Below are positions 10,369 to 11,234 of a DNA stretch of 43,639 bases, in pieces (the stretch's first letter is position 1; each line of letters opens with the position of its first letter). The position numbers and the translations under genes were made by a program. Source of the stretch: a plasmid; sequence record CP102852.1. One strand, given 5' to 3'. Below the pieces are notes generated by a model that was given only the letters and a program-made list of their open reading frames with translations, made no database searches and had not been told where the DNA came from.

Positions 10369-10751
10369 AGAATAGGCAAAAGAAAAGCCATGCTAATCAA
10401 TAAGAAAAGCATGACACTAAGACTTTTACTAATGGAACATCAGCATGAATGGAAGGAGACCAATTTTCTATAGCATAGAACATCTTTTAAATAAAAATTA
10501 GTTTTTAAATAATTATTTGCAATATAATCATTAGGTACAAACTGCAATAAATTAGGTACACACATTAGTAGCCTCTCCTTTGTTTTGTTACTACGTTAAA
10601 CAAAATCTAGTACTTCGATCTGCTTGATGTTGTTGCGAGTTTCTTTGTATAATAAACTTCGCAAGAAGTTTTAAGGGTGGTGGCTGTCTTTTCCCTTGCG
10701 AGGTGAGGCCCATGGGAACATGGAATAATCTTCAGGAAGGTTTCACAGTCA

Positions 10752-10844
10752 ATGAGCGTCGTCTTCCAGACACTCTCGTTGATGTTGCTGTTTGGCACGT
10801 TTTTAATCGCGCTACTCAGCTATATCGACAAGCATCACAAATAA
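10752..10844 (+). CDS. putative type I toxin, a 30-aa Hol-Tox-like membrane peptide
   Basis: ATG 8 nt after AGGAAGG. The peptide is MSVVFQTLSLMLLFGTFLIALLSYIDKHHK, whose N-terminal MSV and LMLxFGTF core match the peptide at 8721. A promoter TTGATG-18-TATAAT lies about 100 nt upstream. The reading frame differs from the 62-aa ORF in the supplied track. Confidence 0.5.
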   Translation: MSVVFQTLSLMLLFGTFLIALLSYIDKHHK

Positions 10845-10845
10845 A

Positions 10846-10966
10846 AAAGTCGCCCTGCGTAACTTTGGTCGGTTACAGGGCAACAATGTAGTTTTGTAAT
10901 CTAGGCCACCGCCTTTGAAGCGGCTTGCACGGGAAGTCCTGTTTTCGGCGGGACTTCCTTTTTCTG
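10846..10966 (-). ncRNA. putative cis-antisense antitoxin RNA
   Basis: Minus-strand extended -10 TGcTATAAT (reverse complement of 10971-10979). A minus-strand terminator hairpin GCCCTGCGTAAC...GTTACAGGGC plus T-run lies immediately after the toxin stop. The plus-strand terminator GGGAAGTCC..GGACTTCC plus T5 lies inside unit C. Confidence 0.3.
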
Positions 10967-11234
10967 TTTATATTATAGCATGACCTTTAAAAACTGGCTA
11001 ACGCTTTAAACTTTGATCCAGTTCGGATTCGGGTTGTTTGATTGACGGATTTTCTTCAGCAAATGCTTGCAGCTGTTTTTGAGTTCGCTTACTGATTTCA
11101 TGGTGTATATCATTTAGTTTATTTTTTAGTTCTGATTTTTGTTGTGGGTTCCTTGCTTGCTGAACTTGTTGTTTCAAGTTTTAATATAACTGATTAAGCG
11201 CTCGGGCTGATAGCTTTTTTATTTTACATTTAAA

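Follow-up and report, generated by a model that had tools for sequence, protein, structure and literature searches.

The plasmid sequence CP102852.1, analysed here over a stretch of 43,639 nt that we call the window, carries at about 10640–10990 a small convergent locus (locus 2, to set it apart from a paralogous locus 1 on the same plasmid) that we read as a plasmid-borne type I toxin–antitoxin module of the TxpA/BsrG (Pfam Hol_Tox)–RatA family, with a probability of about 0.88. On its sequence, it would be an ordinary plasmid "addiction" module, a membrane toxin gene whose mRNA tail is overlapped by a small antisense RNA. Both partners are picked up by curated Pfam and Rfam models, and the toxin has a name in RefSeq; the system is of a kind already known and already annotated, and the family was catalogued in lactobacilli in 2010. 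Several properties place the locus in it. At both locus 1 and locus 2, a small hydrophobic peptide matches the Hol_Tox profile above the gathering score, and downstream of the toxin open reading frame (ORF) lies a convergent antisense RNA gene matching the RatA covariance model. The two genes have separate promoters and terminators, and their RNAs, with ends inferred from sequence, are predicted to overlap at the 3′ ends by ~125 nt (family range, ~100–140 nt). The toxin mRNA is predicted, with support from covariation, to be highly structured, with a helix closing its 5′ end onto its 3′ end and a partly sequestered ribosome-binding site. Toxicity, neutralisation and expression of the locus-2 module are predicted by analogy with studied members of the family.

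The predicted toxin is a 30-amino-acid (aa) peptide, MSVVFQTLSLMLLFGTFLIALLSYIDKHHK, encoded on the plus strand at 10752–10844. It matches PF16935 (Hol_Tox) with 43.6 bits (E = 2.7e-11; cut-off 23.3) and is predicted to form a single transmembrane helix. The window is from a Lactobacillus gasseri plasmid, and its positions 10560–11010 are 100% identical to pHL70_1 (NZ_CP072658.1) and to one other L. gasseri plasmid, and the RefSeq annotation on the L. gasseri plasmid calls exactly 10752–10844 as WP_219620165.1, "putative holin-like toxin". The longest ORF at the locus is a different one, a 62-aa frame at 10703–10891 on the same strand. Being the longest here, and open for at least 50 codons in most homologues, it might be taken for the real gene and the 30-aa frame for an incidental one, but its product has no match in Pfam or NCBIfam, and it has neither a Shine-Dalgarno sequence of its own nor a RefSeq call. 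A one-genome-per-species scan returned 80 loci from Lactobacillaceae, Oenococcus, Weissella, Tetragenococcus and others, and 69 distinct loci were aligned. The toxin frame is 28–30 codons long in 68 of these 69, and it starts with ATG in 68 and with GTG in one. Minority alleles fall on toxin codon positions 1, 2 and 3 in a ratio of 31/10/84; in the 62-aa frame, position 1 takes most of this variation and position 3 the least. The C-terminal third of the 62-aa frame lies inside a terminator hairpin and is completely different between loci. The fraction of variable columns by region was left unused, as it is inflated by a few recombinant rows. By these comparisons the short 30-aa frame is the coding frame, and we rejected the 62-aa ORF on its lack of a family match, its codon-position pattern and its non-conserved tail; its chance of being the true gene is negligible. 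A 29-aa form, MSVFQTLSLMLLFGTFLIALLSYIDKHHK, is the peptide in 58 loci of the 80-species scan, and the window toxin is this consensus plus one extra Val, encoded by an in-frame GTC GTC duplication at 10758–10763.

The antitoxin is predicted to be a RatA-type RNA of ~125 nt, transcribed from the minus strand between ~10965 and ~10840 as judged from its promoter and terminator. The Rfam RatA model (RF01776, "RNA anti-toxin A") matches the minus strand at 10885–10975 with 52.3 bits against a gathering score of 49; searched over 3 kb the RatA match has E = 7e-6, and over the whole window 1e-4, beyond chance. All three units of this kind in the window exceed the RatA gathering score (85.1 bits at locus 1 and 50.5 bits at a truncated orphan unit, in addition to locus 2), and 14 of 20 related loci of other species have a match over the threshold equally far downstream of the toxin stop. 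The antitoxin promoter, TAGCCA-17-TATAAT with an upstream TG (extended −10), reads from 11000 to 10972 on the minus strand with 10/12 matches; this promoter recurs at 9175→9147, and one like it lies at 8967→8939. The terminator hairpin, at 10850–10886, is followed on the minus strand by CUUUUUUAUUU, with the U run extending to 10840 over the toxin stop codon. A simple terminator scan missed this hairpin because its stem is bulged, and 9 of its 13 pairs have changes on both sides among 23 loci. The RNA is predicted to fold into three hairpins. From the stop codon to the terminator of the toxin mRNA it is an exact complement of that mRNA, with a predicted duplex energy with the toxin 3′ region of −259.2 kcal/mol, and the ~125-nt overlap runs 3′ end to 3′ end, a layout common to txpA/RatA, bsrG/SR4 and their relatives (PMC6562991). 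The antitoxin RNA genes are absent from the gene table of the record as PLSDB distributes it, a table that omits all RNA genes.

On the plus strand, a toxin promoter, TTGATG-18-TATAAT with a TG abutting the −10 hexamer, lies at 10624–10653 (10/12 consensus matches); homologues keep the −10 hexamer and vary in the spacer. The predicted toxin mRNA of ~309 nt spans 10660–10968, with its ends placed from promoter and terminator. Its minimum free energy (MFE) is −121.2 kcal/mol compared with −87.5 ± 5.0 for shuffled sequences, a z-score of −6.7. The Shine-Dalgarno sequence AGGAAGG (10734–10740) stands 11 nt upstream of the ATG and is partly paired with CCUU (10694–10697) in the predicted fold. The terminator scan placed the end of the mRNA at 10931–10959, a 13-bp stem followed by TTTTCTGTTT, in which 6 of 13 pairs have changes on both sides among the 23 loci. 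The hairpin directly after the toxin stop has no U run on the plus strand, and the toxin mRNA should therefore read through to 10931–10959. A second Rfam model, rli28 (a Listeria small RNA), covers the 5′ two-thirds of the toxin mRNAs, with 53.2 bits at locus 1 and 35.8 bits at locus 2 (10638–10825), the latter below the gathering score of 45. Although filed as a non-coding RNA, rli28 is the leader and coding region of a Hol_Tox toxin mRNA, a suspicion already raised in a study of Listeria plasmids (PMC9484302).

Much of this layout had been described in a first-pass annotation of the window made from the sequence alone. It had read the locus as a type I toxin–antitoxin pair with the short frame as toxin and the minus-strand RNA (~120 nt) of a downstream "unit C" as antitoxin, which the Hol_Tox and RatA matches, the RefSeq call and the codon variation support. 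The promoter TTGATG-18-TATAAT is where it had been placed, and the ATG at 10752 does open a frame other than that of the 62-aa ORF. The minus-strand terminator proposed after the toxin stop corresponds to the hairpin at 10850–10886 and its U run over the stop codon, and unit C does hold a plus-strand terminator (10931–10959) and a minus-strand extended −10 promoter (11000→10972). A leader motif that it had pointed out, AAGGGTGGTGGC, was found at 10673–10684. The distance of 8 nt given between AGGAAGG and the ATG needs correction: it is 11 nt at locus 2, and 8 nt is the spacing at locus 1.

The leader motif is predicted to be part of the 5′ strand of a long-range helix, P1, that closes the toxin mRNA onto its own 3′ untranslated region (UTR). 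In the predicted folds of both locus 1 and locus 2, the first ~26 nt pair with the segment of the 3′ UTR directly before the terminator. At locus 2 the 5′ strand, GCAAG..GUUUUAAGGGUGGUGGCU, occupies 10661–10685, and the 3′ strand, GGCCACCGCCUUUGAAGC..CUUGC, occupies 10904–10928 within the antitoxin overlap; GCAAG..GUUUUAAGGGUGGUGGCU and AGGCCACCGCCUUUGAAGC..CUUGC form 23 pairs. The duplex energy is −39.9 kcal/mol, compared with −16.3 ± 3.1 for shuffled partners. Because the P1 partner strand lies within the antitoxin overlap, the antitoxin holds a same-sense near-copy of the leader. Among locus-2-type loci alone, P1 is too conserved to inform and shows wobble-compatible changes only. We therefore widened the sample with eight diverged plasmid loci from Leuconostoc, Lacticaseibacillus, Enterococcus and L. 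paragasseri. Through compensatory changes, P1 is retained in five sequence types in which the outer helix is fully exchanged: GCAAG/CUUGC, GUAGAG/CUCUAC, GAUAGUU/GGCUAUU, GGCAGA/UCUGCU and a GCGAA/UUGCU variant of the inner helix. Cognate duplexes have energies of −30 to −41 kcal/mol and beat non-cognate combinations in three of the five types; these energies were computed on restricted segments, as unrestricted RNAduplex runs of upstream against downstream regions gave messy long duplexes. In a formal count over a 23-sequence alignment, 83.7% of cells were paired, compared with 37–52% when the partners were slid, and double-sided changes numbered 107 compared with 40.8 in shuffles, with none of 500 shuffles as high. 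Some rows of this alignment are out of register, and the result holds regardless. The arrangement resembles that of bsrG mRNA, in which experimental probing showed nt 1–35 paired with nt 232–262 as helix P1, the terminator beginning one nucleotide after P1 and the Shine-Dalgarno sequence lying in a 4-bp stem (PMC3834814). Binding of SR4 to bsrG leaves nt 1–33 single-stranded and extends the pairing of the Shine-Dalgarno sequence (PMC3834814).

One sub-lineage of homologues, with 7 of the 69 distinct loci (L007 and L064, loci 595–919), has lost P1. Its 5′ strand is destroyed (AAUGGCAAUGAUUG) in a region homologous to window 10660–10745, and two linked U-to-C changes turn wobble into Watson–Crick pairs between leader GAAGUUUU and AAGGUUUC, the latter overlapping the Shine-Dalgarno sequence. 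The alternative helix strengthened in this way joins leader GAAGCUUU with AAGGCUUC, which again overlaps the Shine-Dalgarno sequence. As these changes belong to a single lineage, they count as one event. From the sequences, the sub-lineage looks like a switch from 5′–3′ closure to constitutive sequestration of the ribosome site, and they give a hint of an alternative helix between leader and ribosome site.

The following mechanism is proposed. The sigma-70-type promoter at 10624–10653 would drive an mRNA of ~309 nt that encodes the 30-aa peptide and ends at 10931–10959. The stronger-looking extended −10 promoter (11000→10972) would drive the ~125-nt antisense RNA, and because this RNA ends just over the toxin stop codon, the two would be perfectly complementary across the whole toxin 3′ UTR. 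The toxin mRNA would be closed by P1, its first ~26 nt paired with 10904–10928, and its Shine-Dalgarno sequence would sit in a short paired stretch, as predicted by folding with support from covariation. By analogy with bsrG/SR4 and txpA/RatA, an abundant but unstable antisense RNA would pair with the 3′ UTR and invade the 3′ arm of P1, and the long duplex would then be cleaved by RNase III. The freed leader would expose the 5′ end to decay and may permit more pairing around the ribosome-binding site. If the plasmid were lost, the antisense RNA would decay first, leftover toxin mRNA would be translated and the peptide would damage the membrane of the plasmid-free cell. An SR4-like effect on translation is not clearly predicted for the locus-2 copy and is left unsupported, because blocking the 3′ UTR in silico changes the accessibility of the Shine-Dalgarno sequence slightly.

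Among known systems, bsrG/SR4 (and bsrE/SR5) of B. subtilis prophages is similar in its small single-helix toxin with the same class of N-terminal motif, its ~300-nt toxin mRNA with a long 5′–3′ helix P1, a terminator directly after it and the Shine-Dalgarno sequence in a short double-stranded stretch, and its convergent antisense RNA, whose overlap of ~120 nt at the 3′ end takes in the 3′ arm of P1 (PMC3834814). It differs in residing in prophages of Bacillus, whereas the present module is on a plasmid in Lactobacillaceae; the antitoxin here is ~125 nt and lacks a non-complementary 5′ stem-loop, the extension of Shine-Dalgarno pairing induced by the antitoxin is not clearly predicted, and the Rfam BsrG model reaches just 18.8 bits on locus 1. 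With txpA/RatA of the B. subtilis skin element (RF01776), the module shares a RatA match above threshold, the 3′-to-3′ overlap of the RNAs and presumed cleavage of the duplex by RNase III, yet TxpA has 59 aa and RatA 222 nt, compared with 30 aa and ~125 nt here. Fozo et al. (2010) assigned peptides of Lactobacillus casei, Leuconostoc and Enterococcus to the TxpA family; for E. faecalis EF3263 they showed toxicity in E. coli and an antisense RNA of ~110 nt that covers the 3′ UTR (PMC2887945). In Listeria, plasmid-borne rli28 and ratA have the same layout and rank with the most highly expressed genes of the plasmid (PMC9484302). The systems of Listeria monocytogenes plasmids and EF3263 share with ours the pairing of Rfam families, an rli28-type mRNA on one strand and RatA on the other, and differ in peptide sequence subtype, with locus 2 under the rli28 gathering score (35.8 compared with 45) and locus 1 over it. 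Earlier descriptions of the family cover E. faecalis, Listeria, S. aureus and B. subtilis, Lactobacillus casei appears among its listed hosts, and T1TAdb treats TxpA/RatA as a standard family (PMC8594479). In S. aureus, SprG/SprF is considered a homologue of TxpA/RatA (PMC8167048). Its NCBIfam model, PepG1, gives the best NCBIfam match of locus 1 (46.3 bits) and 24.3 bits at locus 2; sprG1 encodes two peptides from two start codons, whereas there is a single conserved start codon here. We rejected equivalog status for both PepG1 (24.3 and 46.3 bits; cut-off 70) and ComI (25.1 and 35.9 bits; cut-off 55), and on these scores the ComI and PepG1 peptides are relatives of ours, not orthologues.

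Several observations weigh against the reading as a TxpA/BsrG–RatA module or against parts of it. The RatA score at locus 2 is barely over the threshold (52.3 against 49), and covariation in a hairpin is blind to which strand's RNA is selected. The additional Val, found in this plasmid lineage alone, could alter activity. The Shine-Dalgarno spacing of 11–14 nt is long, and with the 3′ UTR blocked in silico the unpaired probability of the Shine-Dalgarno sequence moves only from 0.39 to 0.32. P1 is wholly absent in one homologue sub-lineage and is therefore dispensable. In the searchable literature, we found no experimental study of the TxpA/BsrG–RatA family in lactobacilli. The most serious competing account, which we nonetheless consider improbable, is that the peptide is mainly a small membrane regulator, ComI-like or a modulator of stress or persistence, whose level is tuned by the antisense RNA with no post-segregational killing. 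The NCBIfam model for ComI, a plasmid-encoded competence inhibitor of B. subtilis, does match both peptides; killing would be redundant on a plasmid that has other systems (RelB/DinJ, a zeta toxin and ParA, with Phd and RelE/ParE in pHL70_1 outside the collinear stretch); and B. subtilis TxpA is non-toxic in E. coli, with non-killing functions discussed by Fozo et al. (PMC2887945). Against this, the ComI matches fall far under the equivalog cut-off, the whole RNA architecture is that of proven toxin–antitoxin pairs and the E. faecalis homologue EF3263 is toxic when overexpressed (PMC2887945).

It is very improbable that locus 2 is in decay and without function, maintained by hitch-hiking alone on a mosaic plasmid. 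A truncated third unit does lie 1.8 kb away, hybrid or broken relatives are known (L007, L009, L071, L083 and L087), and the copy has its unusual Val and a G·U pair in P1 where most loci have G–C. However, the copy keeps intact its promoter, Shine-Dalgarno sequence and start codon, the full ORF, P1, the antitoxin promoter and both terminators, the Val insertion is in frame and the G·U change preserves the pair. Hardly any weight falls on a Fst/Lpt (par-type) module, in which the target of the antitoxin is a set of direct repeats around the start codon of the toxin. Lpt/RNA II, found on L. rhamnosus plasmids and thus in the same bacterial family, is likewise a type I module; its membrane peptide has 29 aa and its genes are transcribed convergently (PMC5608710). 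A similar host, plasmid kind and small hydrophobic peptide recommend the comparison. Lpt/RNA II differs from ours in its Fst-domain toxin and an antitoxin that pairs with repeats at the translation start, both of which are absent here. In Pfam the peptide matches Hol_Tox alone and not the Fst domain; the antitoxin and the 5′ 141 nt of the toxin mRNA give −51 kcal/mol compared with a shuffled mean of −58, with no complementarity beyond chance; and where the antitoxin resembles the leader, it has the same sense as the leader and is not its complement. We rejected membership of Fst/Ldr (par, Lpt) on the domain and on the start region, which is not complementary to the antitoxin. A phage holin of a lysis cassette was rejected as well: the neighbouring genes encode a MobA/MobL relaxase, a LysM protein and a hypothetical protein, with no phage context. 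The genes next to the module differ between plasmids.

Locus 1, at 8621–8942, is a complete paralogous module with Hol_Tox, RatA and rli28 matches. Its toxin ORF (plus strand, 8721–8825) starts with GTG, encodes 34 aa and matches Hol_Tox over its full length (profile 1–34 of 34; 64 bits, E = 1.1e-17). The RefSeq call is 8748–8825, 25 aa from an internal Met. The GTG at 8721, 8 nt after AAAGGAG, is required by the full-length match and by the homologues (VSVSDALQLML…), and the RefSeq call is probably truncated at the N-terminus. The predicted locus-1 mRNA (plus strand, 8622–8936) has an MFE z-score of −8.25 and the same P1 architecture, as GUAGAG/CUCUAC. Its rli28 match (8601–8787, 53.2 bits) passes the gathering score of 45, and its antitoxin (minus strand, ~8822–8933) gives the 85.1-bit RatA match at 8853–8942. 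The homology between the two peptides asserted in the first-pass annotation is borne out: they are 52% identical over the alignment, with the common motif LxLMLxFGTF, and both match PF16935 (E = 2.7e-11 and 1.1e-17). It had also argued from two architecturally identical loci for a functional family and not chance. The above-chance part stands, given the RatA E values and the fold z-score of −6.7; the count is rather two and a half, including a 5′-truncated third unit with an intact antitoxin gene.

This orphan unit (8971–9184) is 93–95% identical to 10800–11009. Its toxin part amounts to the last 14 codons of a locus-2-type ORF (…FLIALLSYIDKHHK*), with no promoter, leader or start codon, and is fused straight after the locus-1 antitoxin promoter. 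The intact antitoxin gene (minus strand, ~9014–9140; RatA 50.5 bits at 9058–9150) has its own promoter (9175→9147) and its own terminator, and its product is ~95% identical to the locus-2 antitoxin over the 5′ 61 nt of the RNA. The predicted duplex with the toxin 3′ region of locus 2 is −177.7 kcal/mol for the orphan antitoxin, compared with −259.2 for the cognate and −110.8 for the locus-1 antitoxin. On these energies, the orphan antitoxin could act in trans on locus 2. Because of this second, near-identical antitoxin gene, deletion of unit C alone may be tolerated, its phenotype masked. We think it a slim but real chance that the orphan is kept as a free-standing antidote, adding antitoxin dosage for locus 2 and perhaps protecting the host from post-segregational killing by other plasmids with the same module. 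Such protection could arise from the near-invariance of the locus-2 toxin, and of its P1 3′ arm, on plasmids of >60 species. The composite of locus 1 and orphan is found on only two L. gasseri plasmids.

Among the relatives of the module, several are mosaic or decayed, namely L009 (on an Oenococcus alcoholitolerans chromosome), L071, L083 and L087. One of them joins a locus-2-type toxin to a locus-1-type antitoxin region and has lost the outer P1 helix, another has its leader replaced, and others have a lost stop codon and an insertion sequence (IS) element adjoining the toxin. Such sequences suggest modular recombination of the toxin half and the antitoxin half.

Collinearity of the window with pHL70_1, the best-matching public plasmid, extends over positions 1–16996 only, and the pHL70_1 annotation applies within that range. 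Positions 17000–43639 form a mosaic in which several long inverted repeats, of 981, 828 and 562 nt, are presumably IS copies. With collinearity lost after 16996 and the remainder mosaic, the plasmid is therefore a rearranged relative of pHL70_1. Further maintenance genes are a zeta-family toxin (14065–14721), RelB/DinJ (~14950–15231, mapped from pHL70_1) and a ParA partition ATPase (17787–18578). Beyond the part that it shares collinearly with the window, pHL70_1 adds a Phd–RelE/ParE pair and a further ATPase. Redundancy among the maintenance functions is high. Three 54-nt tandem repeats at 16006–16179 lie within the gene for a RepA_N-type replication initiator (15491–16639, minus strand); we take them to fit the intragenic origin typical of RepA_N replicons. 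At 2931–6692 on the minus strand, the window encodes an intact 1253-aa LPXTG surface protein with seven Cna_B repeats (270-nt tandem repeats, 3166–5103), where the gene table of pHL70_1, 99.5% identical here, lists only a 50-aa LPXTG fragment. A segment of ~720 nt is duplicated with 96% identity 12.7 kb apart (9685–10402 and 22402–23118) and spans the end of the LysM gene, a 150-aa protein without a family match and the hairpins after it. Directly after the 150-aa ORF, a perfect 20-nt inverted repeat at 10278–10328 (TGATATAACACTGTTAGTAA / TTACTAACAGTGTTATATCA, 11-nt loop) may be a strong terminator or a protein-binding site, and it is followed by a second GC-rich terminator-like hairpin at ~10331–10366.

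The importance of the module for discovery is small, and its use lies in annotation and plasmid engineering. For annotation, the "longest ORF" of a six-frame translation is wrong at locus 2 and the 30-aa frame is right. If the antidote role of the orphan unit were true, it would be an "anti-addiction" or plasmid-competition device at the RNA level. The module is found on 500 plasmid records, of which 464 are mobilizable or conjugative, and its occurrence on hundreds of food and gut lactobacillus plasmids makes it relevant to plasmid stability in probiotic and starter strains.

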